A DNA stretch of 64,000 nucleotides from Eledone cirrhosa (Eukaryota). Location: the NCBI GenBank assembly GCA_964016885.1, contig OZ024741.1, positions 23,684,001-23,748,000 on the forward strand, read 5' to 3'. Both the position numbers and the translations under genes were made by a program. A model generated the notes under the pieces. That model was not told the origin of the DNA. It worked only from the letters and a program-made list of their open reading frames with translations, and did no database searches. Below are positions 1-46,130 of this stretch, piece after piece; position 1 is the first letter of the stretch, and every line of letters starts with the position of its first letter.

Positions 1-3000
1 TGGATAGGACACCAGTCTATCAGAGGGTTAACACACAGGTGAAGAACAATTCCAACTGGATAGGACACCAGTCTATCAGAGGGTTAACACTCAGCTGAAG
101 AACAATTCCAACTGGATAGGACACCAGTCTATCACAGGGTTAACACTCAGCTGAAAAACAATTCCAACTGCATAGGACACCAGTCTATTAGAGGGTTATC
201 ACTCAGCTGAAGAACAATTCCAACTGGATAGGACACCAGTCTATCAGAGGGTTAACACTCATCTGAAGAACAATTCCAACTGGATAGAACACCAGTCTAT
301 CACAGGGTTAACACTCAGCTGAAGAACAATTCCAACTGGATAGGACACCAGTCTATCACAGGGTTAACACACAGCTGAAGAACAATTCCAACTGGATAGG
401 ACACCAGTCTATCAGAGGGTTAACACTCAGCTCAAGAACAATTCCAACTGGATAGGACACCAATCTATCAGAGGGTTAGCACTAAGCTGAAGAACAATTC
501 CATCTGGATAGGACACCAGTCTATCACAGGGTTAACACACAGCAGAAGAACAATTCCAACTGGATAGGACACAAGTCTATCACAGGGTTAACACTCAGCT
601 GAAGAACAATTCCAACTGGATAGGACACCAGTCTATCACAGGGTTATCACTCAGCTGAAGAACAATTCCAACTGGATAGGACACCAGTCTATCAGAGGGT
701 TATCACTCAGCTGAAGAACAATTCCAACTGGATAGGACACCAGTCTATCACAGGGTTAACACTCAGCTGAAGAACAATTCCAACTGGATAGGACACCAGT
801 CTATCACAGGGTTATCACTCAGCTGAAGAACAATTCCAACTGGATAGGACACCAGTCTATCAGAGGGTTAACACACAGCTGAAGAACAATTCCAACTGGA
901 TAGGACACCAGTCTATCAGAGGGTTATCACTCAGCTGCAGAACAATTCCAACTGGATAGGACACCAGTCTATCACAGGGTTAACACTCAGCTGTAGAACA
1001 ATTCCAACTGGATAGGACACCAGTCTATCAGAGGGTTAACACTCAGCTGAAGAACAATTCCAACTGGATAGGACATCAGTCTATCAGAGGGTTAACACTC
1101 AGCTGAAAAACAATTCCAACTGGATGGGACACCAGTCTATCACAGGGATAACACTCAGCTGAAGAACAATTCCAACTGGATAGGACACCAGTCTATCACA
1201 GGGTTAACACTCAGCTGAAGAACAATTCCAACTGGATAGGACACCAGTCTATCACAGGGTTAACACTCAGCTGAAGAACAATGCCAACTGGATAGGACAC
1301 CAGTCTATCAGAGGGTTAACACTCAGCTGAAGAACAATTCCAACTGGATAGGACACCAGTCTATCAGAGGGTTAACACTCAGCTGAAGAACAATTCCAAC
1401 TGGATAGGACACCAGTCTATCAGAGGGTTAACACTCAGCTGAAGAACAATTCCAACTGGATAGGACACCAGTCTATCACAGGGTTAACACTCAGCTGAAG
1501 AACAATTCCAACTGGATAGGACACCAGTCTATCACAGGGTTGACACTCAGCTGAAGAACAATTCCAACTGGATAGGACACCAGTCTATCAGAGGGTTAAC
1601 ACTCAGCTGAAGAACAATTCCAACTGGATAGGACACCAGTCTATCACAGGGTTAACACTCAGCTGAAGAACAATTCCAACTGGATAGGACACTAGTCTAT
1701 CACAGGGTTAACACTCAGCTGAAGAACAATTCCAACTGGATAGGACACCAGTCTATCACAGGGTTAACACTCAGCTGAAGAACAATTCCAACTGGATAGA
1801 CACCAGTCTATCACAGGGTTAACACTCAGCTGAAGAACAATTCCAACTGGATAGGACACCAGTCTATCACAGGTTTAACACCTAGCTGAAGAACAATCCC
1901 AAATGGATAGGACACCAGTCTATCACAGGGTTAACACCTACCTGAAGGACAAACCAAATGGATAGGACACCAGTCTATCACAGGGTTAACACTCAGCTGA
2001 AGAACAATCCCAAATGGATAGGACACCAGTCTATCACAGGGTTAACACTCAGCTGAAGAACAATTCCAACTGGATAGGACACCAGTCTATCACAGGGTTA
2101 ACAGCTAGCTGAAGAACAATCCCAAATGGATAGGACACCAGTCTATCACAGGGTTATCACTCAGCTGAAGAACAATTCCAACTGGATAGGACACCAGTCT
2201 ATCAGAGGGTAACACTCAGCTGAAGAACAATTCCAACTGGATAGGACACCAGTCTATCAGAGGGTTATCACTCAGCTGAAGAACAATTCCAACTGGATAG
2301 GACACCAGTCTATCAGAGGGTTAACACTCAGCTGAAGAACAATTCCAACTGGATAGGACACCAGTCTATCAGAGGGTTAACACTCAGCTGAAGAACAATT
2401 CCAACTGGATAGGACACCAGTCTATCACAGGGTTAACACTCAGCTGAAGAACAATTCCAACTGGATAGGACACCAGTCTATCACAGGGTTGACACTCAGC
2501 TGAAGAACAATTCCAACTGGATAGGACACCAGTCTATCAGAGGGTTAACACTCAGCTGAAGAACAATTCCAACTGGATAGGACACCAGTCTATCACAGGG
2601 TTAACACTCAGCTGAAGAACAATTCCAACTGGATAGGACACTAGTCTATCACAGGGTTAACACTCAGCTGAAGAACAATTCCAACTGGATAGGACACCAG
2701 TCTATCACAGGGTTAACACTCAGCTGAAGAACAATTCCAACTGGATAGACACCAGTCTATCACAGGGTTAACACTCAGCTGAAGAACAATTCCAACTGGA
2801 TAGGACACCAGTCTATCACAGGTTTAACACCTAGCTGAAGAACAATCCCAAATGGATAGGACACCAGTCTATCACAGGGTTAACACCTACCTGAAGGACA
2901 AACCAAATGGATAGGACACCAGTCTATCACAGGGTTAACACTCAGCTGAAGAACAATCCCAAATGGATAGGACACCAGTCTATCACAGGGTTAACACTCA

Positions 3001-6000
3001 GCTGAAGAACAATTCCAACTGGATAGGACACCAGTCTATCACAGGGTTAACAGCTAGCTGAAGAACAATCCCAAATGGATAGGACACCAGTCTATCACAG
3101 GGTTATCACTCAGCTGAAGAACAATTCCAACTGGATAGGACACCAGTCTATCAGAGGGTAACACTCAGCTGAAGAACAATTCCAACTGGATAGGACACCA
3201 GTCTATCAGAGGGTTATCACTCAGCTGAAGAACAATTCCAACTGGATAGGACACCAGTCTATCAGAGGGTTAACACTCAGCTGAAGAACAATTCCAACTG
3301 GATAGGACACCAGTCTATCAGAGGGTTAACACTCAGCTGAAGAACAATTCCAACTGGATAGGACACCAGTCTATCAGAGGGTTAACACTCAGCTGAAGAA
3401 CAATTCCAACTGGATAGGACACCAGTCTATCACAGGGTTAACACTCAGCTGAAGAACAATTCCTACTGGATAGGACACCAGTCTATCACAGGGTTAACAC
3501 ACAGCTGAAGAACAATTCCAACTGGATAGGACACCAGTCTATCACAGGGTTAACACTCAGCTGAAGAACAATTCCAACTGGATAGGACACCAGTCTATCA
3601 CAGGGTTAACACACAGCTGAAGAACAATTCCAACTGGATAGGACACCAGTCTATCAGAGGGTTAACACTCAGCTCAAGAACAATTCCAACTGGATAGGAC
3701 ACCAATCTATCAGAGGGTTATCACTCAGCTGAAGAACAATTCCAACTGGATAGGACACCAGTCTATCACAGGGTTAACACTCAGCTGAAGAACAATTCCA
3801 ACTGGATAGGACACCAGTCTATCAGAGGGTTATCACTCAGCTGAAGAACAATTCCAACTGAATAGGACACCAGTCTATCAGAGGGTTAACACTCAGCTGA
3901 AGAACAATTCCAACTGGATAGGACACCAGTCTATCACAGGGTTAACACTCAGCTGAAGAACAATTCCAACTAGATAGGACACCAGTCTATCACAGGGTTA
4001 ACACACAGCTGAAGAACAATTCCAACTGGATAGGACACCAGTCTATCAGAGGTTAACACTCAGCTCAAGAACAATTCCAACTGGATAGGACACCAATCTA
4101 TCAGAGGGTTATCACTCAGCTGAAGAACAATTCCATCTGGATAGGACACCAGTCTATCAGAGGGTTAACACACAGCTGAAGAACAATTCCAACTGGATGG
4201 GACACCAGTCTATCACAGGGTTATCACTCAGCTGAAGAACAATTCCAACTGGATAGGGCACCAGTCTATCAGAGGGTTAACACTCAGCTGAAGAACAATT
4301 CCAACTGGATAGGACATCAGTCTATCAGAGGGTTAACACTCAGCTGAAAAACAATTCCAACTGGATAGGACACCAGTCTATCACAGGGTTAACACTCAGC
4401 TGAAGAACAATTCCAACTGGATAGGACACCAGTCTATCACAGGGTTAACACTCAGCTGAAGAACAATTCCAACTGGATAGGACACCAGTCTATCACAGGG
4501 TTAACACACAGCTGAAGAACAATCCCAACTGGATAGGACACCAGTCTATCACAGGGTTAACACTCAGCTGAAGAACAATGCCAACTGGATAGGACACCAG
4601 TCTATCAGAGGGTTAACACTCAGCTGAAGAACAATTCCAACTGGATAGGACACCAGTCTATCAGAGGGTTAACACTCAGCTGAAGAACAATTCCAACTGG
4701 ATAGGACACCAGTCTATCAGAGGGTTAACACTCAGCTGAAGAACAATTCCAACTGGATAGGACACCAGTCTATCACAGGGTTAACACTCAGCTGAAGAAC
4801 AATTCCAACTGGATAGGACACCAGTCTATCACAGGGTTAACACTCAGCTGAAGAACAATTCCAACTGGATAGGACACCAGTCTATCAGAGGGTTAACACT
4901 CAGCTGAAGAACAATTCCAACTGGATAGGACACCAGTCTATCACAGGGTTAACACTCAGCTGAAGAACAATTCCAACTGGATAGGACACCAGTCTATCAC
5001 AGGGTTAACACTCAGCTGAAGAACAATTCCAACTGGATAGGACACCAGTCTATCAGAGGGTTAACACTCAGCTGAAGAACAATTCCAACTGGATAGGACA
5101 CCAGTCTATCACAGGGTTAACACTCAGCTGAAGAACAATTCCTACTGGTTAGGACACCAGTCTATCACAGGGTTAACACACAGCTGAAGAACAATTCCAA
5201 CTGGATAGGACACCAGTCTATCACAGGGTTAACACTCAGCTGAAGAACAATTCCAACTGGATAGGACACCAGTCTATCACAGGGTTAACACACAGCTGAA
5301 GAACAATTCCAACTGGATAGGACACCAGTCTATCAGAGGGTTAACACTCAGCTCAAGAACAATTCCAACTGGATAGGACACCAATCTATCAGAGGGTTAT
5401 CACTCAGCTGAAGAACAATTCCAACTGGATAGGACACGAGTCTATCAGAGGGTTAACACACAGCTGAAGAACAATTCCAACTGGATAGGACACAAGTCTA
5501 TCACAGGGTTATCACTCAGCTGAAGAACAATTCCAACTGAATAGGACACCAGTCTATCAGAGGGTAAACACTCAGCTGAAGAACAATTCCAACTGGATAG
5601 GACACCAGTCTATCACAGGGTTATCACTCAGCTGAAGAACAATTCCAAATGGATAGGACACCAGTCTATCAGAGGGTTATCACTCAGCTGAAGAACAATT
5701 CCAACTGGATAGGACACCAGTCTACCAGAGGGTTAACACACAGCTGAAGAACAATTCCAACTGGATAGGACACCAGTCTATCACAGGGTTAACACTCAGC
5801 TGAAGAACAATTCCAACTGGATAGGACACCAGTCTATCACAGGGTTATCACTCAGCTGAAGAACAATTCCAACTGGATAGGACACCAGTCTATCAGAGGG
5901 TTAACACACAGCTGAAGAACAATTCCAACTGGATAGGACACCAGTCTATCAGAGGGTTAACACTCAGCTGAAGAACAATTCCAACTGGATAGGACACCAG

Positions 6001-9000
6001 TCTATCACAGGGTTAACATTCAGCTGAAGAACAATTCCAACTGGATAGGACACCAGTCTATCAGAGGCTTATCACTCAGCTGAAGAACAATTCCAACTGA
6101 ATAGGACACCAGTCTATCAGAGGGTTAACACTCAGCTGAAGAACAATTCCAACTGGATAGGACACCAGTCTATCACAGGGTTAACACTCAGCTGAAGAAC
6201 AATTCCAACTGGATAGGACACCAGTCTATCACAGGGTTAACACACAGCTGGAGAACAATTCCAGCTGGATAGGACACCAGTCTATCAGAGGTTAACACTC
6301 AGCTCAAGAACAATTCCAACTGGATAGGACACCAATCTATCAGAGGGTTATCACTCAGCTGAAGAACAATTCCATCTGGATAGGACACCAGTCTATCAGA
6401 GGGTTAACACACAGCTGAAGAACAATTCCAACTGGATGGGACACCAGTCTATCACAGGGTTATCACTCAGCTGAAGAACAATTCCAACTGGATAGGACAC
6501 CAGTCTATCAGAGGGTTAACACACAGCTGAAGAACAATTCCAACTGGATAGGACACCAGTCTATCTCAGGGTTAACACTCAGCTGAAGAACAATTCCAAC
6601 TGGATAGGACACCAGTCTATCACAGGGTTATCACTCAGCTGAAGAACAATTCCAACTGGATAGGACACCAGTCTATCAGAGGGTTAACACACAGCTGAAG
6701 AACAATTCCAACTGGATAGGACACCAGTCTATCAGAGGGTTATCACTCAGCTGCAGAACAATTCCAACTGGATAGGACACCAGTCTATCACAGGGTTAAC
6801 ACTCAGCTGAAGAACAATTCCAACTGGATAGGACACCAGTCTATCAGAGGGTTAACACTCAGCTGAAGAACAATTCCAACTGGATAGGACACCAGTCTAT
6901 CAGAGGGTTAACACTCAGCTGAAAAACAATTCCAACTGGATAGGACACCAGTCTATCAGAGGGTTAACACTCAGCTGAAGAACAATTCCAACTGGATAGG
7001 ACACCAGTCTATCACAGGGTTAACACTCAGCTGAAGAACAATTCCAACTGGATAGGACACCAGTCTATCACAGGGTTATCACTCAGCTGAAGAACAATTC
7101 CAACTGGATAGGACACCAGTCTATCAGAGGGTTAACACACAGCTGAAGAACAATTCCAACTGGATAGGACACCAGTCTATCAGAGGGTTATCACTCAGCT
7201 GCAGAACAATTCCAACTGGATAGGACACCAGTCTATCACAGGGTTAACACTCAGCTGAAGAACAATTCCAACTGGATAGGACACCAGTCTATCAGAGGGT
7301 TAACACTCAGCTGAAGAACAATTCCAACTGGATAGGACATCAGTCTATCAGAGGGTTAACACTCAGCTGAAAAACAATTCCAACTGGATGGGACACCAGT
7401 CTATCACAGGGATAACACTCAGCTGAAGAACAATTCCAACTGGATAGGACACCAGTCTATCACAGGGTTAACACTCAGCTGAAGAACAATTCCAACTGGA
7501 TAGGACACCAGTCTATCACAGGGTTAACACTCAGCTGAAGAACAATGCCAACTGGATAGGACACCAGTCTATCAGAGGGTTAACACTCAGCTGAAGAACA
7601 ATTCCAACTGGATAGGACACCAGTCTATCAGAGGGTTAACACTCAGCTGAAGAACAATTCCAACTGGATAGGACACCAGTCTATCAGAGGGTTAACACTC
7701 AGCTGAAGAACAATTCCAACTGGATAGGACACCAGTCTATCACAGGGTTAACACTCAGCTGAAGAACAATTCCAACTGGATAGGACACCAGTCTATCACA
7801 GGGTTGACACTCAGCTGAAGAACAATTCCAACTGGATAGGACACCAGTCTATCAGAGGGTTAACACTCAGCTGAAGAACAATTCCAACTGGATAGGACAC
7901 CAGTCTATCACAGGGTTAACACTCAGCTGAAGAACAATTCCAACTGGATAGGACACTAGTCTATCACAGGGTTAACACTCAGCTGAAGAACAATTCCAAC
8001 TGGATAGGACACCAGTCTATCACAGGGTTAACACTCAGCTGAAGAACAATTCCAACTGGATAGACACCAGTCTATCACAGGGTTAACACTCAGCTGAAGA
8101 ACAATTCCAACTGGATAGGACACCAGTCTATCACAGGTTTAACACCTAGCTGAAGAACAATCCCAAATGGATAGGACACCAGTCTATCACAGGGTTAACA
8201 CCTACCTGAAGGACAAACCAAATGGATAGGACACCAGTCTATCACAGGGTTAACACTCAGCTGAAGAACAATCCCAAATGGATAGGACACCAGTCTATCA
8301 CAGGGTTAACACTCAGCTGAAGAACAATTCCAACTGGATAGGACACCAGTCTATCACAGGGTTAACAGCTAGCTGAAGAACAATCCCAAATGGATAGGAC
8401 ACCAGTCTATCACAGGGTTATCACTCAGCTGAAGAACAATTCCAACTGGATAGGACACCAGTCTATCAGAGGGTAACACTCAGCTGAAGAACAATTCCAA
8501 CTGGATAGGACACCAGTCTATCAGAGGGTTATCACTCAGCTGAAGAACAATTCCAACTGGATAGGACACCAGTCTATCAGAGGGTTAACACTCAGCTGAA
8601 GAACAATTCCAACTGGATAGGACACCAGTCTATCAGAGGGTTAACACTCAGCTGAAGAACAATTCCAACTGGATAGGACACCAGTCTATCACAGGGTTAA
8701 CACTCAGCTGAAGAACAATTCCAACTGGATAGGACACCAGTCTATCACAGGGTTGACACTCAGCTGAAGAACAATTCCAACTGGATAGGACACCAGTCTA
8801 TCAGAGGGTTAACACTCAGCTGAAGAACAATTCCAACTGGATAGGACACCAGTCTATCACAGGGTTAACACTCAGCTGAAGAACAATTCCAACTGGATAG
8901 GACACTAGTCTATCACAGGGTTAACACTCAGCTGAAGAACAATTCCAACTGGATAGGACACCAGTCTATCACAGGGTTAACACTCAGCTGAAGAACAATT

Positions 9001-12000
9001 CCAACTGGATAGACACCAGTCTATCACAGGGTTAACACTCAGCTGAAGAACAATTCCAACTGGATAGGACACCAGTCTATCACAGGTTTAACACCTAGCT
9101 GAAGAACAATCCCAAATGGATAGGACACCAGTCTATCACAGGGTTAACACCTACCTGAAGGACAAACCAAATGGATAGGACACCAGTCTATCACAGGGTT
9201 AACACTCAGCTGAAGAACAATCCCAAATGGATAGGACACCAGTCTATCACAGGGTTAACACTCAGCTGAAGAACAATTCCAACTGGATAGGACACCAGTC
9301 TATCACAGGGTTAACAGCTAGCTGAAGAACAATCCCAAATGGATAGGACACCAGTCTATCACAGGGTTATCACTCAGCTGAAGAACAATTCCAACTGGAT
9401 AGGACACCAGTCTATCAGAGGGTAACACTCAGCTGAAGAACAATTCCAACTGGATAGGACACCAGTCTATCAGAGGGTTATCACTCAGCTGAAGAACAAT
9501 TCCAACTGGATAGGACACCAGTCTATCAGAGGGTTAACACTCAGCTGAAGAACAATTCCAACTGGATAGGACACCAGTCTATCAGAGGGTTAACACTCAG
9601 CTGAAGAACAATTCCAACTGGATAGGACACCAGTCTATCAGAGGGTTAACACTCAGCTGAAGAACAATTCCAACTGGATAGGACACCAGTCTATCACAGG
9701 GTTAACACTCAGCTGAAGAACAATTCCTACTGGATAGGACACCAGTCTATCACAGGGTTAACACACAGCTGAAGAACAATTCCAACTGGATAGGACACCA
9801 GTCTGTCACAGGGTTAACACTCAGCTGAAGAACAATTCCAACTGGATAGGACACCAGTCTATCACAGGGTTAACACACAGCTGAAGAACAATTCCAACTG
9901 GATAGGACACCAGTCTATCAGAGGGTTAACACTCAGCTCAAGAACAATTCCAACTGGATAGGACACCAATCTATCAGAGGGTTATCACTCAGCTGAAGAA
10001 CAATTCCAACTGGATAGGACACCAGTCTATCACAGGGTTAACACTCAGCTGAAGAACAATTCCAACTGGATAGGACACCAGTCTATCAGAGGGTTATCAC
10101 TCAGCTGAAGAACAATTCCAACTGAATAGGACACCAGTCTATCAGAGGGTTAACACTCAGCTGAAGAACAATTCCAACTGGATAGGACACCAGTCTATCA
10201 CAGCGTTAACACTCAGCTGAAGAACAATTCCAACTAGATAGGACACCAGTCTATCACAGGGTTAACACACAGCTGAAGAACAATTCCAACTGGATAGGAC
10301 ACCAGTCTATCAGAGGTTAACACTCAGCTCAAGAACAATTCCAACTGGATAGGACACCAATCTATCAGAGGGTTATCACTCAGCTGAAGAACAATTCCAT
10401 CTGGATAGGACACCAGTCTATCAGAGGGTTAACACACAGCTGAAGAACAATTCCAACTGGATGGGACACCAGTCTATCACAGGGTTATCACTCAGCTGAA
10501 GAACAATTCCAACTGGATAGGGCACCAGTCTATCAGAGGGTTAACACTCAGCTGAAGAACAATTCCAACTGGATAGGACATCAGTCTATCAGAGGGTTAA
10601 CACTCAGCTGAAAAACAATTCCAACTGGATAGGACACCAGTCTATCACAGGGTTAACACTCAGCTGAAGAACAATTCCAACTGGATAGGACACCAGTCTA
10701 TCACAGGGTTAACACTCAGCTGAAGAACAATTCCAACTGGATAGGACACCAGTCTATCACAGGGTTAACACACAGCTGAAGAACAATCCCAACTGGATAG
10801 GACACCAGTCTATCACAGGGTTAACACTCAGCTGAAGAACAATGCCAACTGGATAGGACACCAGTCTATCAGAGGGTTAACACTCAGCTGAAGAACAATT
10901 CCAACTGGATAGGACACCAGTCTATCAGAGGGTTAACACTCAGCTGAAGAACAATTCCAACTGGATAGGACACCAGTCTATCAGAGGGTTAACACTCAGC
11001 TGAAGAACAATTCCAACTGGATAGGACACCAGTCTATCACAGGGTTAACACTCAGCTGAAGAACAATTCCAACTGGATAGGACACCAGTCTATCACAGGG
11101 TTAACACTCAGCTGAAGAACAATTCCAACTGGATAGGACACCAGTCTATCAGAGGGTTAACACTCAGCTGAAGAACAATTCCAACTGGATAGGACACCAG
11201 TCTATCACAGGGTTAACACTCAGCTGAAGAACAATTCCAACTGGATAGGACACCAGTCTATCACAGGGTTAACACTCAGCTGAAGAACAATTCCAACTGG
11301 ATAGGACACCAGTCTATCAGAGGGTTAACACTCAGCTGAAGAACAATTCCAACTGGATAGGACACCAGTCTATCACAGGGTTAACACTCAGCTGAAGAAC
11401 AATTCCTACTGGTTAGGACACCAGTCTATCACAGGGTTAACACACAGCTGAAGAACAATTCCAACTGGATAGGACACCAGTCTATCACAGGGTTAACACT
11501 CAGCTGAAGAACAATTCCAACTGGATAGGACACCAGTCTATCACAGGGTTAACACACAGCTGAAGAACAATTCCAACTGGATAGGACACCAGTCTATCAG
11601 AGGGTTAACACTCAGCTCAAGAACAATTCCAACTGGATAGGACACCAATCTATCAGAGGGTTATCACTCAGCTGAAGAACAATTCCAACTGGATAGGACA
11701 CGAGTCTATCAGAGGGTTAACACACAGCTGAAGAACAATTCCAACTGGATAGGACACAAGTCTATCACAGGGTTATCACTCAGCTGAAGAACAATTCCAA
11801 CTGAATAGGACACCAGTCTATCAGAGGGTAAACACTCAGCTGAAGAACAATTCCAACTGGATAGGACACCAGTCTATCACAGGGTTATCACTCAGCTGAA
11901 GAACAATTCCAAATGGATAGGACACCAGTCTATCAGAGGGTTATCACTCAGCTGAAGAACAATTCCAACTGGATAGGACACCAGTCTACCAGAGGGTTAA

Positions 12001-27000: not shown

Positions 27001-27810
27001 AGTCTATCACAGGGTTAACACTCAGCTGAAGAACAATTCCAACTGGATAGGACACCAGTCTATCACAGGGTTAACACCTAGCTGAAGGACAAACCAAATG
27101 GATAGGACACCAGTCTATCACAGGGTTAACACTCAGCTGAAGAACAATTCCAACTGGATAGGACACCAGTCTATCACAGGGTTAACACTGAGCTGAAGAA
27201 CAATCCCAAATGGATACGACACCAGTCTATCACAGGGTTAACACCTAGCTGAAGGACAAACCAAATGGATAGGACACCAGTCTATCAGAGGGTTAACACT
27301 CAGCTGAAGAACAATTCCAACTGGATAGGACACCAGTCTATCACAGGGTTAACACTCAGCTGAAGAACAATTCCAACTGGATAGGACACCAGTCTATCAC
27401 AGGGTTAACACTCAGCTGAAGAACAATCCCAAATGGATAGGACACCAGTCTATCACAGGGTTAACACCTAGCTGAAGGACAAACCAAATGGATAGGACAC
27501 CAGTCTATCACAGGGTTAACACTCAGCTGAAGAACAATTCCAACTGGATAGGACACCAGTCTATCACAGGGTTAACACCTAGCTGAAGAACAATCCCAAA
27601 TGGATAGGACACCAGTCTATCAGAGGGTTAACACACAGCTGAAGACTGATACCCACTGGATAGGACACCAGTCTATCACAGGGTTAACACTCAGCTGAAG
27701 AACAATACAAACTGGATAGGACACCAGTCTATCACAGGGTTAACACACAGCTGAAGACTGATACCCACTGGATAGGACACCAGTCTATCAGAGGGTTAAA
27801 CACTTAGCTG
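1..27810. repeat. 56-bp tandem satellite array, about 497 copies, open at the left window edge
   Basis: Monomer tggataggacaccagtctatca(c/g)agggttaacactcagctgaagaacaattccaac starts at 1, 57, 113 and so on. It repeats without spacers up to ~27810 and contains the palindromes GTTAAC and CAGCTG. Confidence 0.99.
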
Positions 27811-30826: not shown

Positions 30827-30864
30827 TCTTTCACTTTTTCTAAATCTTTAGGTTTGTGTTTCAA
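30827..30864 (-). CDS. CCDC61: CCDC61 coding exon 5 (38-nt micro-exon, LKHKPKDLEKVK plus 2 nt)
   Basis: Acceptor ttacctttcag and donor gtaagt. It is in frame (phase 0) with exon 4 and has coiled-coil-like composition. Support comes mainly from splice signals and frame. Confidence 0.7.
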
Positions 30865-31940: not shown

Positions 31941-32046
31941 CTCGTCTTTAAGTTGTTTTACTTCAGACCTCAGATTTACAATGATCTGTTGTAAGGAAGT
32001 GTTATTAGGTGTTGGTTTTTGATGTAAAGGAAGTGGATAGTGTATT
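31941..32046 (-). CDS. CCDC61: CCDC61 coding exon 4: (R)IHYPLPLHQKPTPNNTSLQQIIVNLRSEVKQLKDE
   Basis: Acceptor ctattgtttcag, donor gtattt, 106 nt, completing the phase-2 Arg codon. Matches vertebrate CCDC61 RIHYPLPLPYQGKPDPVVLQGIIRSLKEE as recalled. Confidence 0.93.
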
Positions 32047-33015: not shown

Positions 33016-33114
33016 CAATCTCGATCTCAGTTGTTTTTACATCTGCTTTTCCATATACACCTGATATTCCCCTTCCATACACATACACACGTTTGTGTAT
33101 ATCTGTGTGTATAT

Positions 33115-33701: not shown

Positions 33702-33859
33702 CTATCAAATTCAACTGTGTAAGTTAATATTAGATAGCGCTTGGAGTTAAGATTTGCAGTAGGTTGTTTCTCAGCATTGGCTCTGTTCCCAGAACGCTGT
33801 AGACGGAGTTGCTCCAGGTCAGCATATGTTAGTAAATCAAGGGTCACACTTTCACTTTG
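33702..33859 (-). CDS. CCDC61: CCDC61 coding exon 3: QSESVTLDLLTYADLEQLRLQRSGNRANAEKQPTANLNSKRYLILTYTVEFD(R)
   Basis: Acceptor ttttccttgccctag, donor gttagt, 158 nt. The SESVTLDLLTYxDLExLR and LNSKRYLILxYxVEFDR motifs are diagnostic of the CCDC61/VFL3 head domain. Confidence 0.97.
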
Positions 33860-35129: not shown

Positions 35130-35212
35130 CTTAAGTAAAGCTGTTTTCAACATATTAGAAAATATAGAAAATTGTTTGAAGTTTCCAGTTTTGTGGGTGA
35201 GGTTTTCAATAT
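35130..35212 (-). CDS. CCDC61: CCDC61 coding exon 2: (Y)IENLTHKTGNFKQFSIFSNMLKTALLK
   Basis: Acceptor ttttccttcttatatccag, donor gtgaga, 83 nt, phase 1 to 0. Matches the CCDC61 motif IEDLTHKTGNFKQFNIFCHMLESAL. Confidence 0.97.
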
Positions 35213-35339
35213 CTGGATATAAGAAGGAAAACCATGAAAAGAAAAAAATATGAAATCAACTGAGAAATCAGATATAGTTCTGGAAGGATCCAGTTGTTCA
35301 TTCAACTAGATAGTTTGCTCATGAAATTAACATATAAGA

Positions 35340-36899: not shown

Positions 36900-39800
36900 A
36901 TGCGACCCTCAGTTCCTACCTCACAATTTCCCCCCCCCCCCCCCCCACACACACCACCATAGTCTATTCGACCAATCAAACCTAGCATGCCATTTCCACT
37001 GCTGCTGCTACTACCTGCCTAACTAACTCTCTCCTCCTCTGGCGTATCCCAACACACCCTGCCATTACCCCACCACCACTGTTCTTCTAGCCCTCAATTT
37101 TCCCACCGTTATGGATGGATGAGCTGGGAATACACGAGCAACTCTGAATCAATAGATGAAATATGAATCTGCGAGCTACCAAGCACCCACGTGAAGCGCC
37201 AACCCAGAGACCCTCCCCTACGAGTGTCGACAAATGCCCAAAACTCCGAGTTGGTACCATCAATGTAGGCTCAATGAAAGGAAGAGCAGGAGAAATCGTA
37301 GAAATGCTAGAGCGAAAGGAAGTTGATGTATGCTGTGTGCAAGAGACTAGGTGGAGAGGAGGGTCTGCTAGAGTCCTTGTAGGAAAAAGCCAGTGCTACA
37401 AATTTTTCTGGGTGGGAAATGACGATGGGATGGGTGGTGTAGGTATACTATTAGCTGACAAGTGGGTAGATAAAGTAATCTCAGTGTACAGGGTAAATGC
37501 AAGAATCATTAAACTCAGACTAGTCCTGAATAAGACAATTACCACAATAATATCAGCTTACGCACCCCAATCGGGGCTGCCAGACGAACTTAAGGATAGG
37601 TTTTACGAGTCCCTAATACACACTACTGCTCTAACAGACGACAAGGACTTCCTAATCATTGCAGGAGATTTTAACGGACACGTAGGTAAACACTGCGACG
37701 GCTTCAATAGAGTACATGGAGGCCATGGAGTTGGCACAAGGAATGAGGAAGGATTCAGACTTCTAGAATTCTGCGACGCCAATGACATGTCGATATGTAA
37801 CACAAACTTTAAAAAACCCGACAACCACCTGATCACCTATAGATCAGGGGAGCACTCTAGTCAGTTAGATTTTATCCTCATCAGAGGACGTGACAGATGG
37901 ACGGTCGTAAACACAAAAGCCTTCCCTAGTGAGGAATGTACATCCCAACATAGCTTAGTTGTCAGCGACCTCACGGTCAGAACTAGACGAGCCCTGAAAC
38001 AGAGGCCAACCTGGAGAAGAAAGATCTGGAAGCTGAAAGTCCCCTCAACCAGTAACAGATTTAAAGATATTTTACTCAACGCCTACGACAGTAAAGAAGA
38101 ACAGATAGAGACATTTAACGTAGAAGAGAACTGGGAGTTCCTAAAAAATAACTTACTAGAGGCGACGGATGAGGTTTGTGGCTGGAGTAAGACCTCAAGC
38201 AGGAGGAGAGTGACTTGGTGGTGGAACAATAAGGTAGATGAAGCAGTCAAGGCCAAGAGACAGGCATGGAAAGAATGGAAGAACGGGGGGAGCAGGGTAC
38301 ATTACATAGAGACCAAGAGGGAAGCTAGGCGACAAGTATACTTAGCTAGGAGGGAAGCAGAGGATAGAAAATTCAAGCATGTTTTACAACGTGAGGACCA
38401 GAAACAGGAGGTATTCAAGATTGCGAGGCAGTGTGTCAGAGATAGTTGTGATGTCATTGGAGAGAAGTGTATCCGGAATGATAAAGGTGAGCTTGCCCTC
38501 ACAAGTGCTGAGAAGAAAGATGCATGGAAGAGTCATTATGATAGATTACTAAATGAGGAGAATGCATGGGAAGAAGAGACCCTACCCCACGTAGACCCTA
38601 TAGAGGGACCAGCAGTACAAGTCAGCGGCAGCGTAGTAAGTAAGGCAATCAGAGATATGAAGATAGGGAAGGCAACCGGTCCATCGGGTATAGCTGCCGA
38701 GATGCTGAAGGCATCTGGGTCTGTAGGTCACACTATAACCACACGTATCGTTAACAAGGTAATACTAGAGGGGGCCATACCAAAAGATTGGTGCAGTAGC
38801 ATCATTGTCAACTGCTACAAAGGTAAAGGCGATGCACTAGATAGAGGAAACTATAGAGGTAGAAAGTTGATGGACCAGGTCATGAAAGTAACAGAAAGAG
38901 TTATAGCACAGCTGATTAGGGACCGGGTGAATATAGACGAGATGCAATTTGGGTTTGTACCAGGGAAAGGCACCACTGATGCCCTCTTCCTTGTGAGGCA
39001 ATTACAGGAAAAGTACCTAGCTAAAAGTAAGCCACTCTACTTGGCATTTGTCGACCTTGAGAAAGCCTTTGACAGAGTTCCACGTGCAGTAATCTGGTGG
39101 GCTCTTAGAAAACTAGGAGTAGATGAATGGCTTGTGAAAGCGGTACAAGCCATGTATAGGGGAGCAGTCAGCAAAGTTAGGATTGGCAATGAGTATAGCG
39201 AGGAATTTAGCGTACAGGTTGGGGTCCACCAGGGCTCTGTTCTTAGCCCTCTCCTGTTCATCATAGTCCTGCAGGCAATAACGGAGGAGTTTAAGACCGG
39301 ATGCCCATGGGAACTCCTGTATGCTGATGACCTCGCACTCATAGCTGAATCTATGGTAGAACTAGAGAATAAATTCCAAACCTGGAAGCAGGGACTAGAG
39401 AGAAAGGGCCTCAAAGTCAACATGACAAAGACTAAGGTCCTTATAAGTAGACGAGAAAACAGAACCCAGATCCCCTCAGGGAAATGGCCTTGCTCAGTAT
39501 GTAGGAAAGGTGTAGGTAGGAACTCCATTCTCTGCCCCAAATGCAAACAATGGGTACACAAGAGATGTAGCGGGATCTCAGGAAGCTTAATTAAGAATGT
39601 AGGATTCACATGCAGCAGCTGTGCTGAAACAGCAAGCAAACAGCCACAGGAAACAAGTACCACCAATCTCTGGGAGGGCCCTGTAGAAACAGTAGACAGC
39701 TTCTGCTACCTAGGTGACCGAATTAGCAACGGAGGTGGGTGCTCAGAAAGTACAATAACTAGGGTAAGAACGGGATGGAAGAAGTTTAGGGAACTACTAC

Positions 39801-40587
39801 CACTGCTAGCTGCAAAAGGCTTCTCCCTCAGAATGAAAGGCAGACTGTATGATGCGTGTATCCGAACAGCGATGTTGCATGGTAGTGAGACCTGGGCGCT
39901 GAAGGTGGAAGACTTACGTAGATTAGAGAGAAACGAAGCCTGCATGCTCCGATGGATGTGTAACAGTAATATACGTGAACGACAAAGCATAAAGGAATTG
40001 AGAGAGAGACTGAGCATAAGAGGAATCAAATGCTGCGTGCAGGAGAGGCGGTTACGCTGGTATGGACATGTGATGCGTATGAAGGATGACAGCTGCATAA
40101 AAAGGTGCAGAGCACTAGAAGTTGATGGAAACCGCGGAGTGGGGAGACCCAAGATGACTTGGGATGAGGTGATAAAAGCCGACCTTACCCAACTACACCT
40201 CTCAAAGTCAATGACACACGACCGTGACTTCTGGCGTCACACAGTAATACAGGGTACCCGACCTCCCATGGGTACATGCTGAAGCATATAAACAATATGC
40301 CCCCCCCCCCCCACCGCAAGGTGGTCGTGGAGGTGCCACGGCAAAAAAGCACCCAGCCCACACTGTAAAGTGGACGTGTAGGCGCCACGAAAAAGCACCC
40401 AGCACTCACTGTAAATGAGGTTGGTGTTAGGAAGGGCATCCAGCTGTAGAAATCAAGCCAGATCAGTTCCTGTATGAGCAAGGCATGGTCAGCCGACCAG
40501 ACACTGCCCACAACAGGACAACCCGTCTAACCCATGCTAGCGTGGAAGAACGGACGTAAAACGGTGATGATGATGATGATGATGATT
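36900..40587 (+). mobile_element. Near full-length RTE-clade LINE (5' boundary approximate), antisense within CCDC61 coding intron 1
   Basis: Single long ORF plus a 3'UTR ending ggacgtaaaacggt(gat)n at ~40552-40587. Composition shifts from AT-rich flank to a C-rich leader near 36900. Confidence 0.93.
37163..40282 (+). CDS. RTE retrotransposon polyprotein, 1039 aa: APE endonuclease, reverse transcriptase and an inserted PHD-type Zn finger
   Basis: APE motifs: GTINV, CCVQETRW, SAYAPQ, AGDFNGHVG, LDFIL, SQHSLVV. RT motifs: QFGF, FVDLEKAFDRV, GVHQGSVLSP, LLYADDL, FCYLG. Cys4-His-Cys3 pattern: CSVC..CPKC..VHKRC..CSSC. No stop codons. Confidence 0.96.
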   Translation: MNLRATKHPREAPTQRPSPTSVDKCPKLRVGTINVGSMKGRAGEIVEMLERKEVDVCCVQETRWRGGSARVLVGKSQCYKFFWVGNDDGMGGVGILLADKWVDKVISVYRVNARIIKLRLVLNKTITTIISAYAPQSGLPDELKDRFYESLIHTTALTDDKDFLIIAGDFNGHVGKHCDGFNRVHGGHGVGTRNEEGFRLLEFCDANDMSICNTNFKKPDNHLITYRSGEHSSQLDFILIRGRDRWTVVNTKAFPSEECTSQHSLVVSDLTVRTRRALKQRPTWRRKIWKLKVPSTSNRFKDILLNAYDSKEEQIETFNVEENWEFLKNNLLEATDEVCGWSKTSSRRRVTWWWNNKVDEAVKAKRQAWKEWKNGGSRVHYIETKREARRQVYLARREAEDRKFKHVLQREDQKQEVFKIARQCVRDSCDVIGEKCIRNDKGELALTSAEKKDAWKSHYDRLLNEENAWEEETLPHVDPIEGPAVQVSGSVVSKAIRDMKIGKATGPSGIAAEMLKASGSVGHTITTRIVNKVILEGAIPKDWCSSIIVNCYKGKGDALDRGNYRGRKLMDQVMKVTERVIAQLIRDRVNIDEMQFGFVPGKGTTDALFLVRQLQEKYLAKSKPLYLAFVDLEKAFDRVPRAVIWWALRKLGVDEWLVKAVQAMYRGAVSKVRIGNEYSEEFSVQVGVHQGSVLSPLLFIIVLQAITEEFKTGCPWELLYADDLALIAESMVELENKFQTWKQGLERKGLKVNMTKTKVLISRRENRTQIPSGKWPCSVCRKGVGRNSILCPKCKQWVHKRCSGISGSLIKNVGFTCSSCAETASKQPQETSTTNLWEGPVETVDSFCYLGDRISNGGGCSESTITRVRTGWKKFRELLPLLAAKGFSLRMKGRLYDACIRTAMLHGSETWALKVEDLRRLERNEACMLRWMCNSNIRERQSIKELRERLSIRGIKCCVQERRLRWYGHVMRMKDDSCIKRCRALEVDGNRGVGRPKMTWDEVIKADLTQLHLSKSMTHDRDFWRHTVIQGTRPPMGTC

Positions 40588-40591
40588 ATAT

Positions 40592-40965
40592 AGAGTTTAA
40601 GATTGGCTACCTCATGGGAATTCCTATATGCCAATGGTCTAGTCTGCAACAGAATTTAAGAAATTCCAGACAAGGAAGCAACACTTAGAATCAAAAGGCC
40701 TCAAAATCAACTTGTAATTAGAAAAAAAAGGACCTTGATTCCATCAAGGAAATGGTCATGCACAGTATGTAAAAAAGAAACAGGTATAAATTCCATTTTA
40801 TATGCAAAATATAAGGAATCCTCATCATTGTTTAATGTCTATCTTCCACGCTAGCATGGGTGGGTATGTTAGCAAAGAATTTGCATGCAGCAGATATACA
40901 GGAATGGTAAGCAGCAAGGGGTCACATGAAACAAACTTAATCATGTTTAGATGATTCATTAGAGG
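40592..40965 (+). mobile_element. Older degenerate RTE RT fragment, left flank of the 34-bp array
   Basis: Decayed EFKTG.PWELLYA, LESKGLKINL, IPS.KW.C.VC and FACSR..G, ending at DDSLEV. An inverted RTE tail fragment lies at ~40823-40862. Confidence 0.8.
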
Positions 40966-43900
40966 TCCATGTTCTGGGTGTTTGTTACCAGGGTGGAGGT
41001 CCATGTTCTGGGTGTTTGTTACCAGGGTGGAGGTCCATGTTCTGGGTGTTTGTTACCAGGGTGGAGGTCCATGTTCTGGGTGTTTGTTACCTGGGTGGAG
41101 GTCCATGTTCTGGGTGTTTGTTACCAGGGTGGAGGTCCAGGTTCTGGGTGTTTGTTACCAGGGTGGAGGTCCATGTTCTGGGTGTTTGTTACCTGGGTGG
41201 AGGTCCATGTTCTGGGTGTTTGTTACCAGGGTGGAGGTCATGTTCTGGGTGTTTGTTACCTGGGTGGAGGTCCATGTTCTGGGTGTTTGTTACCAGGGTG
41301 GAGGTCCAGGTTCTGGGTGTTTGTTACCAGGGTGGAGGTCCATGTTCTGGGTGTTTGTTACCTGGGTGGAGGTCCATGTTCTGGGTGTTTGTTACCAGGG
41401 TGGAGGTCATGTTCTGGGTGTTTGTTACCTGGGTGGAGGTCCATGTTCTGGGTGTTTGTTACCAGGGTGGCGGTCCATGTTCTAGGTATTTGTTACCTGG
41501 GTGGAGGTCCAGGTTCTAGGTGTTTGTTACCTGGGTGGAGGTCCATGTTCTGGGTGTTTGTTATCTGGGTGGAGGTCCATGTTCTGGGTATTTGTTACCT
41601 GGGTGGAGGTCCAGGTTCTAGGTGTTTGTTACCAGGGTGGAGGTTCATGTTCTGGGTATTTGTTACCTGGGTGGAGGTCCATGTACTGGGTGTTTGTTAC
41701 CAGGGTGGAGGTCCATGTTCTGGGTGTTTGTTACCTGGGTGGAGGTCCAGGTTCTAGGTGTTTGTTACCTGGGTGGAGGTCCATGTTCTTGGTGTTTGTT
41801 ACCTGGGTGGAGGTCCATGTTCTGGGTGTTTGTTACCAGGGTGGAGGTCCATGTTCTAGGTGTTTGTTACCTGGGTGGAGGTCCATGTTCTGGGTGTTTG
41901 TTACCAGGGTGGAGGTCCATGTTCTAGGTGTTTGTTACCAGGGTGGAGGTCCATGTTCTGGGTGTTTGTTACCAGGGTGGAGGTCCATGTTCTAGGTGTT
42001 TGTTACCAGGGTGGAGGTCCATGTTCTGGGTGTTTGTTACCAGGGTGGAGGTCCATGTTCTAGGTGTTTGTTACCAGGGTGGAGGTCCATGTTCTGGGTG
42101 TTTGTTACCTGGGTGGAGGTCCATGTTCTGGGTGTTTGTTACCAGGGTGGAGGTCCATATTCTGGGTGTTTGTTACCAGGGTGGAGGTCCATGTTCTGGG
42201 TGTTTGTTACCTGGGTGGAGGTCCATGTTCTGGGTGTTTGTTACCAGGGTGGAGGTCCATGTTCTGGGTGTTTGTTACCAGGGTGGAGGTCCATGTTCTG
42301 GGTGTTTGTTACCAGGGTGGAGGTCCATGTTCTGGGTGTTTGTTACCAGGGTGGAGGTCCAGGTTCTGGGTGTTTGTTACCAGGGTGGAGGTCCAGGTTC
42401 TAGGTGTTTGTTACCTGGGTGGAGGTCCATGTTCTGGGTGTTTGTTACCTGGGTGGAGGTCCATGTTCTGGGTGTTTGTTACCTGGGTGGAGGTCCATGT
42501 TCTGGGTGTTTGTTACCAGGGTGGAGGTCCATGTTCTGGGTGTTTGTTACCAGGGTGGAGGTCCATGTTCTGGGTATTTGTTACCTGGGTGGAGGTCCAT
42601 GTTCTAGGTGTTTGTTACCAGGGTGGAGGTCCAGGTTCTGGGTATTTGTTACCAGGGTGGAGGTCCATGTTCTGGGTATTTGTTACCAGGGTGGAGGTCC
42701 AGGTTCTAGGTATTTGTTACCTGGGTGGAGGTCCATGTTCTGGGTATTTGTTACCTGGGTGGAGGTCCAGGTTCTAGGTGTTTGTTACCTGGGTGGAGGT
42801 CCATGTTCTGGGTGTTTGTTACCAGGGCGGAGGTCCATGTTCTGGGTATTTGTTACCTGGGTGGAGGTCCATGTTCTGGGTGTTTGTTACCTGGGTGGAG
42901 ATCCATGTTCTGGGTGTTTGTTACCTGGGTGGAGATCCATGTTCTGGGTGTTTGTTACCTGGGTGGAGGTCCATGTTCTGGGTGTTTGTTACCTGGGTGG
43001 AGGTCCATGTTCTGGGTGTTTGTTACCTGGGTGGAGGTCCATGTTCTGGGTGTTTGTTACCTGGGTGGAGGTCCATGTTCTGGGTGTTTGTTACCAGGGT
43101 GGAGGTCCATGTTCTGGGTGTTTGTTACCAGGGTGGAGGTCCATGTTCTGGGTGTTTGTTACCTGGGTGGAGGTCCATGTTCTGGGTGTTTGTTACCAGG
43201 GTGGAGGTCCATGTTCTGAGTGTTTGTTACCTGGGTGGAGATCCATGTTCTGGGTGTTTGTTACCTGGGTGGAGATCCATGTTCTGGGTGTTTGTTACCT
43301 GGGTGGAGGTCCATGTTCTGGGTGTTTGTTACCAGGGTGGAGGTCCATGTTCTGGGTGTTTGTTACCAGGGTGGAGGTCCATGTTCTGGGTGTTTGTTAC
43401 CAGGGTGGAGGTCCATGTTCTGGGTATTTGTTACCTGGGTGGAGGTCCATGTTCTGGGTGTTTGTTACCAGGGTGGAGGTCCATGTTCTGGGTGTTTGTT
43501 ACCAGGGTGGAGGTCCATGTTCTGGGTGTTTGTTACCAGGGTGGAGGTCCATGTTCTGGGTGTTTGTTACCAGAATGGAGGTCCAGGTTCTAGGTGTTTG
43601 TTACCAGGGTGGAGGTCCATGTTCTGGGTGTTTGTTACCAGGGTGGAGGTCCATGTTCTGGGTGTTTGTTACCAGGGTGGAGGTCCAGGTTCTAGGTGTT
43701 TGTTACCTGGGTGGAGGTCCATGTTCTGGGTGTTTGTTACCTGGGTGGAGGTCCATGTTCTAGGTGTTTGTTACCAGGGTGGAGGTCCATGTTCTGGGTG
43801 TTTGTTACCAGGGTGGAGGTCCATGTTCTAGGTGTTTGTTACCAGGGTGGAGATCCATGTTCTGGGTGTTTGTTACCTGGGTGGAGGTCCATGTTCTGGG

Positions 43901-45502
43901 TGTTTGTTACCAGGGTGGAGGTCCATGTTCTGGGTGTTTGTTACCAGGGTGGAGGTCCATGTTCTGGGTGTTTGTTACCAGGGTGGAGGTCCAGGTTCTG
44001 GGTGTTTGTTACCTGGGTGGAGGTCCATGTTCTGGGTGTTTGTTACCTGGGTGGAGGTCCATGTTCTGGGTGTTTGTTACCAGGGTGGAGGTCCATGTTC
44101 TGGGTGTTTGTTACCTGGGTGGAGGTCCATGTTCTGGGTGTTTGTTACCAGGGTGGAGGTCCATGTTCTGGGTGTTTGTTACCAGGGTGGAGGTCCATGT
44201 TCTGGGTATTTGTTACCTGGGTGGAGGTCCATGTTCTAGGTGTTTGTTACCTGGGAGGAGGTCCATGTTCTAGGTGTTTGTTACCAGGGTGGAGGTCCAT
44301 GTTCTGGGTGTTTGTTACCAGGGTGGAGGTCCATGTTCTGGGTATTTGTTACCAGGGTGGAGGTCCATGTTCTGGGTATTTGTTACCTGGGTGGAGGTCC
44401 AGGTTCTAGGTGTTTGTTACCTGGGTGGAGGTCCATGTTCTGGGTGTTTGTTACCAGGGCGGAGGTCCATGTTCTGGGTATTTGTTACCTGGGTGGAGGT
44501 CCAGGTTCTAGGTGTTTGTTACCTGGGTGGAGGTCCATGTTCTGGGTGTTTGTTACCAGGGCGGAGGTCCATGTTCTGGGTATTTGTTACCTGGGTGGAG
44601 GTCCAGGTTCTAGGTGTTTGTTACCTGGGTGGAGGTCCATGTTCTGGGTATTTGTTACCTGGGTGGAGGTCCATGTTCTGGGTGTTTGTTACCTGGGTGG
44701 AGATCCATGTTCTGGGTGTTTGTTACCTGGGTGGAGGTCCATGTTCTGGGTATTTGTTACCTGGGTGGAGATCCATGTTCTGGGTGTTTGTTACCTGGGT
44801 GGAGGTCCATGTTCTGGGTGTTTGTTACCTGGGTGGAGATCCATGTTCTGGGTGTTTGTTACCAGGGTGGAGGTCCATGTTCTGGGTGTTTGTTACCTGG
44901 GTGGAGGTCCATGTTCTGGGTGTTTGTTACCAGGGTGGAGGTCCATGTTCTGGGTGTTTGTTACCTGGGTGGAGGTCCATGTTCTGGGTGTTTGTTACCT
45001 GGGTGGAGGTCCATGTTCTCGGTGTTTGTTACCTGGGTGGAGGTCCATGTTCTAGGTGTTTGTTACTTGGGTGGAGGTCCATGTTCTAGGTGTTTGTTAC
45101 CAGGGTGGAGGTCCAGGTTCTGGGTGTTTGTTACCTGGGTGGAGGTCCATGTTCTGGGTGTTTGTTACCTGGGTGGAGGTCCATGTTCTGGGTGTTTGTT
45201 ACCTGGGTGGAGGTCCATGTTCTGGGTGTTTGTTACCAGGGTGGAGGTCCATGTTCTGGGTATTTGTTACCTGGGTGGAGGTCCATGTTCTGGCATTTGT
45301 TACTTGGGTGAAGGTCCATGTTCTGTGTATTTGTTACCAGGGTGGAGGTCCATGTTCTGGGCATTTGTTACTTGGGTGAAGGTCCATGTTCTGGGTATTT
45401 GTTACCTGGGTGGAGGTCCATGTTCTAGGTGTTTGTTACCTGGGTGGAGGTCCATGTTCTAGGTGTTTGTTACCAGGGTGGAGGTCCATGTTCTGGGTGT
45501 TT
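40962..45502. repeat. 34-bp minisatellite, about 133 copies
   Basis: Monomer gaggtcca(t/g)gttct(g/a)ggt(g/a)tttgttacc(a/t)gggtg repeated in tandem, more diverged at the right end. Confidence 0.99.
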
Positions 45503-45805: not shown

Positions 45806-45970
45806 GCAGCTTGGCAAAAAAAAAGATTAATAAAATAAGAACCAGACTCAAAAAATAACTAATTGGGTTAATATGATTGACAAAAAAATCCCTTTACAAC
45901 CGTGCCCCAGCATGGCCAACATTTAATGTCTAACAGCAGTAAAATAGAAAAAGAGATGTAGAAAACTTAC

Positions 45971-46130
45971 ATTCAGCATCAAATGTTCCACACCATACGT
46001 CCAAAGTTCCATTATCAAGTACCTCAATGGTGAAGTTATGACTGATTTCTTCACCATACATCATTAAAATAACATATTCAATGCCTCGCAAATGTAAATG
46101 AGAGCTGATACTTTGTTCGTTAGACATCAT
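45971..46130 (-). CDS. CCDC61: CCDC61 first coding exon: MMSNEQSISSHLHLRGIEYVILMMYGEEISHNFTIEVLDNGTLDVWCGTFDAE plus 1 nt
   Basis: ATG at 46130, donor gtaagt at 45970-45965, 160 nt, phase 1 matching exon 2. Aligns with the CCDC61 N-terminus (FRGVEH..LEVED..TADQWRGEFDA). A possible upstream acceptor ttttatgcttgaag ends at 46176. Confidence 0.9.

Follow-up and report, generated by a model that had tools for sequence, protein, structure and literature searches.

A single CCDC61 gene in Eledone cirrhosa with a 102-kb SINE-derived minisatellite array in intron 5

The CCDC61 gene and its exons

The 64,000-nucleotide stretch of Eledone cirrhosa DNA analysed here (the window) carries the 5ˊ portion of a CCDC61 gene (Table 1). 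CCDC61/VFL3 is a SAS6 paralogue and a basal-body protein on which ciliary function depends, and its orthologues are known to localize to basal bodies and to bind microtubules, as described in the accessible part of PMC7267773. The five exons in the window sum to 545 nt, or 181 codons plus two nucleotides, with phases that agree throughout. All five end in a GT donor, and exons 2 to 5 begin after an AG acceptor. The N-terminal SAS6/XRCC4-like head domain is present, as exon 3 matches the solved CCDC61 (6hxt), while exon 1 alone gives a weak match (E 0.45). The named proteins among the best 120 matches are all CCDC61 or uncharacterised proteins sharing its Pfam families. Pfam searches with exons 1, 3, and 4 taken singly returned no family. 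The original prediction of an in-frame CCDC61 head of about 181 aa from five minus-strand exons thus agrees with the splice sites, the phases, and the 6hxt match. An AG acceptor lies approximately 45 nt upstream of the ATG, and therefore the exon listed first is probably first only among coding exons.

The rest of the gene was expected to the left of the window, and eight further exons are indeed found there, in order and on the same strand, beyond a long tandem array. The model comprises 13 collinear exons, all on the minus strand, that span 181,770 bp. Exons 1 to 12 encode 472 aa with no stop codons, and 346 of 478 aligned positions (72%) are identical to CCDC61 from Argonauta, a 524-aa reference protein, in a comparison restricted to these 12 exons. 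The final exon, which carries the stop codon, is also located beyond the array; a short exon required for phase between it and exon 12 was not found in three scans. Only one CCDC61 locus is present in the genome. Similar to other CCDC61/VFL3 proteins of about 500 aa, the octopod orthologue has a head domain, a coiled coil, and a C-terminal region. There is nothing unusual about the protein, but the gene measures 182 kb and is 71% tandem array.

Intron 1 is 10,758 bp long and contains a LINE and a minisatellite, which matches the earlier description of an intron of about 10.8 kb with a LINE and a 4.5-kb minisatellite. The predicted LINE ORF includes endonuclease, RVT_1, and PHD-like finger domains (Pfam) and is followed by a (GAT)n tail near position 40590. 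We take this element to be RTE-like on the basis of its layout.

Table 1. Features of the CCDC61 locus. Positions refer to the window unless a contig position is given.
Feature	Position	Strand	Details
CCDC61 first coding exon	45971..46130	-	160 nt; ATG at 46130; 77% identity to Argonauta aa 1-53; GT donor
34-bp minisatellite, intron 1	40962..45502	.	TRF; 4,541 bp; ~134 copies
LINE ORF, intron 1	37160..40282	+	ORF list; stop-free over 1,040 aa; antisense to CCDC61
CCDC61 exon 2	35130..35212	-	83 nt; 100% identity to Argonauta aa 55-81; spliced in X4 contig
CCDC61 exon 3	33702..33859	-	158 nt; 6hxt E 1.2e-13; spliced in X4 contig
CCDC61 exon 4	31941..32046	-	106 nt; 86% identity to Argonauta aa 134-170; spliced in X4 contig
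CCDC61 exon 5	30827..30864	-	38 nt; phase-2 donor; AG/GT ends; phase fits exon 6
5ˊ (CORE) part of putative parent SINE	29939..29987	-	SINE positions 78-127; score 40 vs shuffle maximum 34, modest margin
5ˊ-truncated LINE (RT and PHD-like remnant) inside putative parent SINE	27828..29938	+	Pfam RVT_1 and PHD in ORF 28288-29139
Resumed SINE body leading straight into first array unit	27811..27827	-	SINE positions 131-202; score 82 vs shuffle maximum 36
56-bp SINE-derived satellite, intron 5	1..27810, on left to C2:23609558	-	TRF; ~497 units in window
CCDC61 exon 6 start	contig position C2:23608264	-	Phase agrees with exon 5

The intron 5 array and its SINE origin

Intron 5 begins at position 30826 and extends for 106,562 bp. 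It is mostly occupied by a gap-free array of 56-bp units that totals 102,253 bp (~1,826 units), of which 74 kb lies to the left of the window. This intron had been described as longer than 30 kb with approximately 500 copies; it is large and satellite-filled as proposed, but these figures are too low. The units deviate by 2.4% per site, and exact 400-mers recur at spacings of 3 to 11 kb. All 1,212 genomic matches to a 24-mer from the array junction fall within the CCDC61 intron 5 region. Because the array is confined to one locus and is homogeneous, it is likely to be young. Tandem arrays account for 25% and 72% of the two gene flanks. A coding role for the array is rejected, given that its longest frame has 72 codons.

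Long tandem arrays pose difficulties for assembly, and this one includes multi-kb exact duplications. The array could therefore be real but inflated in length, or the join between the two halves of the gene could have been made artificially across it. However, there is no N base in the 264 kb examined around CCDC61, and no copies of the array occur on any other of 1,796 contigs. In addition, 96% of 3-kb words within the array are unique, such that long reads can order it, and the exons on either side are collinear and in phase. An assembly effect of this kind is decidedly improbable, and we consider the array to be a real, well-resolved single-locus minisatellite that inflates an intron.

The source of the repeat unit was sought by alignment to a natural SINE copy from the same genome, with shuffled sequences as controls. 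The 56-bp monomer aligns over its entire length with SINE positions 148-212 (score 56 versus a shuffle maximum of 40). SINE sequence is also retained as a flank at the 5ˊ edge of the array, where a truncated LINE sits between SINE positions 127 and 131; no SINE tail was found at the 3ˊ edge. A pattern search recovered 2,157 occurrences of the SINE segment genome-wide compared to none for a reversed control, and BLAST with the monomer as query found no parent element in 39 sample windows or the gene flanks. Among 20 genomic copies of the SINE, tRNA-derived heads are visible by eye in most, and a downstream CORE-like motif (at most three mismatches) is present in 13. This layout is that of a CORE-SINE, and an internal SINE segment as monomer with transposon sequence at the array edge is characteristic of a transposon-derived minisatellite. 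On these alignments, the array unit is identified as the post-CORE body of a tRNA-headed CORE-SINE, whose putative parent copy, split by the LINE, still flanks the array.

The original prediction had Pol II crossing sense-oriented copies of a V-domain. The array is intronic and has the SINE-sense orientation relative to CCDC61, which would oblige Pol II to traverse it, but the unit is not a V-domain. The motif common to Vhc SINEs in a published supplement (PMC4758252 / PMC5804259, partly accessible) occurs in none of the 20 SINE copies (at most three mismatches), and the segment instead matches the post-CORE body of Pami; the V/Vhc domain of V-SINEs is absent from the array unit. The parent SINE shares the order of tRNA head, CORE, and amplified segment with the CORE-SINEs Pami (bat star) and Lipo, according to the accessible parts of PMC5804259 and PMC4758252; our comparison covered these two elements and left out octopus OR2. 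Alu minisatellites, the mouse B1 VNTR, and salamander Hy/Pol III are other minisatellites derived from internal pieces of SINEs (PMC9659126). Compared to the examples in the available portion of that source, the octopod array differs in reaching ~100 kb at one locus within a coding gene, with part of its parent SINE attached.

We propose that a tRNA-headed CORE-SINE inserted into intron 5 in the CCDC61 sense, and that a stretch of about 60 bp between two CAG-like trinucleotides then underwent head-to-tail duplication. The array would have reached its present ~1,826 units through unequal exchange of multi-kb blocks. The LINE would have inserted into the same SINE, immediately upstream of the array, either before or after this growth.

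Transcription and splicing across the array

In a 1,100-nt contig from the public run X4, whose library type is not on record, exons 2, 3, and 4 are spliced together exactly where predicted. Past exon 4, the contig extends for another 620 nt, and no continuation into intron 5 is listed for it. This length would be accounted for by exons 5, 6, and 7 (377 nt) together with 243 nt of exon 8, and words from exon 8 are also found in X4. Such a structure predicts a word share of 0.73, and the share seen is 0.71, although 34 words enter this comparison and a DNA-like run gives 0.77. No RNA run is listed for exon 8, which is evidence in neither direction.

The exon 5-exon 6 junction across the array is predicted indirectly, from collinear, in-phase exons. 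Pieces of LINE and SINE in the 4 kb preceding the array could provide a terminal exon. The array might block most full-length transcription, in which case the gene would mainly yield a short head-domain isoform that ends before the array, with rare or separate expression of the exons beyond it. This possibility is very unlikely, since the exons beyond the array are open and conserved, and the 620 nt of the X4 contig and, more weakly, its word share argue against it.

Presumably, Pol II reads through the array and exon 5 is joined to exon 6. No AAUAAA or AUUAAA poly(A) signals are present in the 102-kb array. There is one GTRAG, and 1,600 acceptor-like TTCTTCAG sites are thus left almost without donor partners. 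There are also 154 YAG|GTGTTA sites with a weak donor, and recursive splicing through the array via these sites is a matter of speculation. We are confident overall that this is the single octopod CCDC61 gene, and that its intron 5 array was probably amplified in place from a 56-bp internal piece of one CORE-SINE and is probably spliced out within an ordinary, neutral long intron.

Intronic arrays in other genes and the Drosophila Y loops

Of 39 windows of 10 kb placed blindly, 13 contain arrays of at least 1 kb (three of the 13 are (AT)n-like), and three of the 39 are entirely array. In the non-ciliary gene for myosin IX, an intron of ~145 kb contains an array of 81 kb, and one of 67 kb contains an array of 41 kb. 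Five of seven myosin gaps larger than 25 kb were examined (leaving out C5, 44 kb, and C3, 28 kb), and three of these five lack satellite richness (0-8%). Nup107, NELF-C/D, and two AlaRS loci are compact, with spans of 9 to 26 kb. These compact genes and satellite-poor gaps place CCDC61 in the tail of the distribution. Ribophorin II yielded a single match and could not serve as an intron control. In all 15 arrays, poly(A) signals are rare on either strand. We rejected the notion that expansion in the sense orientation is restricted to units without cryptic splice signals, because the myosin IX arrays carry 22 to 67 GTRAG per kb on the sense strand.

The giant intron had been likened to those of Drosophila Y-linked axonemal genes, which are transcribed slowly and specifically in spermatocytes with dedicated RNA-binding proteins. 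Like kl-3 and kl-5, the octopod gene is cilium-related, with transcription through intronic satellite inferred (PMC6508621, PMC11207136). A regulated intron of this type, whose satellite RNA is bound by dedicated proteins and controls when CCDC61 is expressed in sperm or ciliated cells, would fit the basal-body role of CCDC61 in ciliary function (PMC7267773) and the 71% of its span that is array. Also consistent with such an intron are the folding of three sense units, which is better than that of shuffles (z -2.4, with 5 of 200 shuffles folding equally well), and a 27-kb gap, containing interrupted arrays of a 48-mer, at one dynein heavy-chain locus.

However, the parallel breaks down in several respects. 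Y-loop introns consist of megabases of simple satellite that make up more than 99% of the locus, according to the available text of PMC6508621, whereas the octopod intron is ~0.1 Mb and its 56-bp unit is SINE-derived and found at a single locus (compare PMC6508621 and PMC11207136, as far as available). Inflation is not concentrated in axonemal or male-fertility genes: myosin IX is equally satellite-filled, and 18 of 19 dynein loci have no gap larger than 10 kb across DHC_N2, which covers ~400 aa of each gene in this small sample. The flanks of CCDC61 are themselves array-rich, and the array is likely young. We therefore regard a regulated Y-loop-like intron as improbable.

Because non-ciliary myosin IX is inflated likewise, satellite expansion of introns is likely a habit of the whole genome rather than a cilia-specific device. 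The same process would fill other introns and the CCDC61 flanks with unrelated units, and no cilia- or testis-specific role is then needed. A neutral array that is typical of this genome is most likely. We lean slightly towards a broader view in which ordinary single-copy genes routinely carry intronic arrays of 40 to 100 kb, each with its own unit born in place from a local transposon fragment. If true, this would be a mode of growth for introns and for the genome as a whole, involving roughly one sixth of the sequence sampled, with somatic cells transcribing and splicing through it. CCDC61 intron 5, with its parent SINE attached, would then record one array birth from start to finish. Judging by titles and the starts of abstracts, no open-access paper on arrays as a large share of octopod genomes, including inside non-ciliary genes, was found.

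The complete CCDC61 gene model was recovered across a 102-kb array of a type at which short-read assemblies break and gene callers fail. With the parent SINE still attached, the satellite can be traced to its source. Since the 56-mer occurs at one locus, it is a specific probe with which RNA-FISH or long reads can report the transcription of one intron of one gene, and transcription and splicing through satellite DNA thereby become testable outside Drosophila spermatocytes.

The CCDC61 locus and its introns

The five in-frame exons originally predicted for the centriole/basal-body gene CCDC61 are real: their phases agree over a total of 181 codons, and exon 3 has its nearest protein match in CCDC61 of Argonauta hians (90% identity). 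The search for CCDC61 to the left of the window, proposed with that prediction, was made over 200 kb with the Argonauta protein and extended to the whole 3.0-Gb genome. It yields more exons, collinear and on the same strand, and 9/9 genome-wide matches belong to this single locus. Exons 1-12, with GT donors and phases that agree, encode 472 amino acids with no stops, identical to Argonauta at 346 of 478 aligned positions, and the last exon terminates in a stop. A short exon required for phase ahead of the last exon was not found in scans of the locus. The CCDC61 gene is intact and collinear.

Features of the CCDC61 locus and of compared genes. Plain positions refer to the window (negative, to its left); C numbers are contigs of the assembly, C2 being OZ024741.1
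Feature	Position	Strand	Remark
CCDC61 exon 1	46130-45971	-	phases match
CCDC61 exon 2	35212-35130	-	phases match; X4 record 885-967
CCDC61 exon 3	33859-33702	-	matches solved CCDC61 head, E 1.2e-13; X4 record 727-884
CCDC61 exon 4	32046-31941	-	phases match; X4 record 621-726
CCDC61 exon 5	30864-30827	-	phases match
CCDC61 exons beyond array (starts)	-75736, -89963, -119705, -121689, -122388, -123258, -124949, -135509 (last)	-	Argonauta protein match
56-mer in window	1-27810		
First array unit	27827		entered directly from SINE sequence
CORE part of parent SINE	29987-29939		past truncated LINE inserted in between
PHD-finger LINE family	37160-40282; 28288-29139	+	finger immediately follows RT match (aa 778-821)
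RT-like frame	48490-49200	-	weak RVT_1, E 0.044
Intron 6, 42-mer array	G000:C2:23597615-23607639		10 kb
Inverted block in 42-mer array	-80622 to -78583		2 kb
DHC_N2 pair	G000:C19:6705821-6811056	opposite	near-identical scores, ~100 kb apart
Myosin IX	G000:C3:886078-1201001	-	
45-mer array, another myosin gene	G000:C6:99966272-100003949		37.7 kb, between exon matches
Ribophorin II domain	G000:C15:27570153-27570848		inside single 630-aa open frame

Intron 5 spans 106,562 bp, of which 102,253 bp (96%) is an array of a 56-bp tandem satellite, the 56-mer; it comprises some 1,826 units and contains no N. The claim of an intron longer than 30 kb and mostly satellite is thus upheld, although the figure of ~500 copies does not describe the whole array. 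This satellite-filled intron is a real feature; giant introns filled with satellite are already known in Drosophila (PMC6508621). Arrays of at least 1 kb make up 129,680 of the 181,770 bp of the gene; in introns 1, 6 and 7, whose array units are unrelated, the proportion is 42%, 72% and 43%. As described originally, intron 1 (10,758 bp) holds a LINE and a 4.5-kb minisatellite, here a 34-mer array; the LINE ORF (1,040 aa, antisense to CCDC61) carries endonuclease, RT and PHD-like domains.

One copy of this LINE family, which has a PHD-like Cys/His finger, has an unbroken 1,040-aa ORF; octopus is described as carrying full-length RTE LINEs that include a zinc finger (PMC9115989). The inverted block in the intron 6 array would allow long double-stranded RNA to form in the pre-mRNA, a possible substrate for A-to-I editing. 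Upstream of the first coding exon, a degenerate RT-like frame is probably a decayed retroelement.

Origin of the 56-mer array

A 24-mer spanning the unit junction has 1,212 genome matches, all 1,212 of them within the region; the satellite thus occurs at one locus only. Among the 1,604 units that are 56 nt long, the deviation per site is 2.4%. Identical 400-mers reappear 3-11 kb apart, as expected if blocks were duplicated. Because 96% of the 3-kb words in the array are unique, it can be resolved by long reads.

A degenerate pattern of the unit core has 2,157 dispersed matches in the genome, compared with 0 for a reversed control, and the 20 dispersed copies examined represent a tRNA-headed SINE. 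A CORE-like motif is present in 13 of these 20 and the Vhc motif in none. In the published supplements, the unit segment follows the CORE in Pami, a bat star CORE-SINE (PMC5804259), and the motif common to Vhc SINEs (PMC4758252) differs from it. The term 'V-domain' is therefore a misnomer, and the initial description of the units as V-domain copies must be abandoned. A similar segment presumably occurs in fish V-SINE tails.

Over its full length, the monomer matches positions 148-212 in one of the natural SINE copies, with CAG at each end. Together with the SINE sequence at the array edge, these matches show a SINE origin, as for tandem repeats derived from SINEs in several animals (PMC9659126); the alignment of the CORE part, on the far side of the truncated LINE, tops 200 shuffles only modestly (40 versus 34). 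The initial duplication may have taken place between the CAG ends of the SINE segment, and the array would then have grown by unequal exchange.

Transcription and splicing of CCDC61

When positions 30400-35500 are compared with the untyped public sequencing run X4, a single 1,100-nt contig covers exactly exons 2, 3 and 4, joined at the predicted bases; these upstream exons are spliced. The contig has a further 620 nt on its 3ˊ side, with no continuation into intron 5 listed. With exons 5, 6 and 7 taking up 377 nt, the other 243 nt of this length would come from exon 8. The share of exon 8 words in X4 predicted from this is 0.73 and that seen is 0.71; the agreement is weak, being based on 34 words, and X3, a DNA-like run, gives 0.77. 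Exon 8 occurs in four public runs, none of them recorded as RNA. Presumably, Pol II reads through the array and exon 5 is joined to exon 6 across it. The sense strand of the array contains 1,600 acceptor-like TTCTTCAG, one GTRAG and neither AATAAA nor ATTAAA, which makes cryptic exons and early poly(A) addition unlikely.

Metazoan Pol II generally elongates at 1-3 kb/min. At that rate, transcription of intron 5 would take about an hour. This estimate contrasts with Drosophila kl-3, whose transcription is described as taking days (PMC11207136).

Array-filled introns in ciliary and non-ciliary genes

In a reading modelled on Drosophila Y-linked axonemal genes such as kl-3 and kl-5, the array would be a regulated device of a ciliary gene. 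Among dyneins, the DHC_N2 domain (only ~400 aa of each protein) gave 87 matches at 19 loci, and 18 of these have no gap above 10 kb; at the remaining locus, arrays account for about a quarter of a 27-kb gap. Myosin heads, which are non-ciliary, gave at least 72 matches (65 of 237 candidates scored). Five of the seven myosin gaps above 25 kb were inspected: two are rich in arrays, at 55% and 64%, and the other three contain 0-8% array. The larger array-rich gap lies in myosin IX, where consecutive exons are separated by ~145, 67 and 53 kb. The first gap holds an 80,984-bp 40-mer array (2,035 units), the second a 41,430-bp 29-mer array, and 64% of the 319-kb region is tandem array. Ciliary function is not tracked by inflation in this sample; the parallel with the Drosophila genes is not supported, and a regulated ciliary role for the array is very improbable.

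Low donor content as a general rule of such arrays is ruled out by the myosin IX arrays, with 22 (40-mer) and 67 (29-mer) GTRAG per kb on the sense strand. Inflation is not universal, since the loci of Nup107 and NELF-C/D, and two of AlaRS, extend over no more than 9-26 kb. CCDC61 therefore sits in the tail of the distribution, yet with company.

In another myosin gene with a long array, the exon order fits one gene, the query being a paralogue. The ribophorin II frame suggests an intron-poor or intronless gene, and the DHC_N2 pair stems either from an inverted duplication or from duplicate assembly.

Background was sampled in 39 blind 10-kb windows at fixed rather than randomly drawn positions (20 on C2, 19 on other chromosomes). 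Arrays of at least 1 kb occur in 13 of the 39 (three of them (AT)n-like), three windows consist of nothing but array, and on average arrays make up 16% of a window. We lean slightly towards the view that ordinary single-copy genes of this octopod routinely carry intronic arrays of 40-100 kb, each born locally from a transposon fragment. Introns go unmentioned in the searched text of an O. vulgaris repeat re-annotation (PMC13282606), and no open-access paper on cephalopod intronic satellites was found, judging by titles and the starts of abstracts.

The flanks of CCDC61 are 25% and 72% array, with unrelated units: a 46-mer (at least 32 kb), a 48-mer (8.8 kb), another 46-mer (18.7 kb) and a 41-mer (18.5 kb). 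By eye, the 48-mer and the first 46-mer look like a short repeat of the LINE 3ˊ region.
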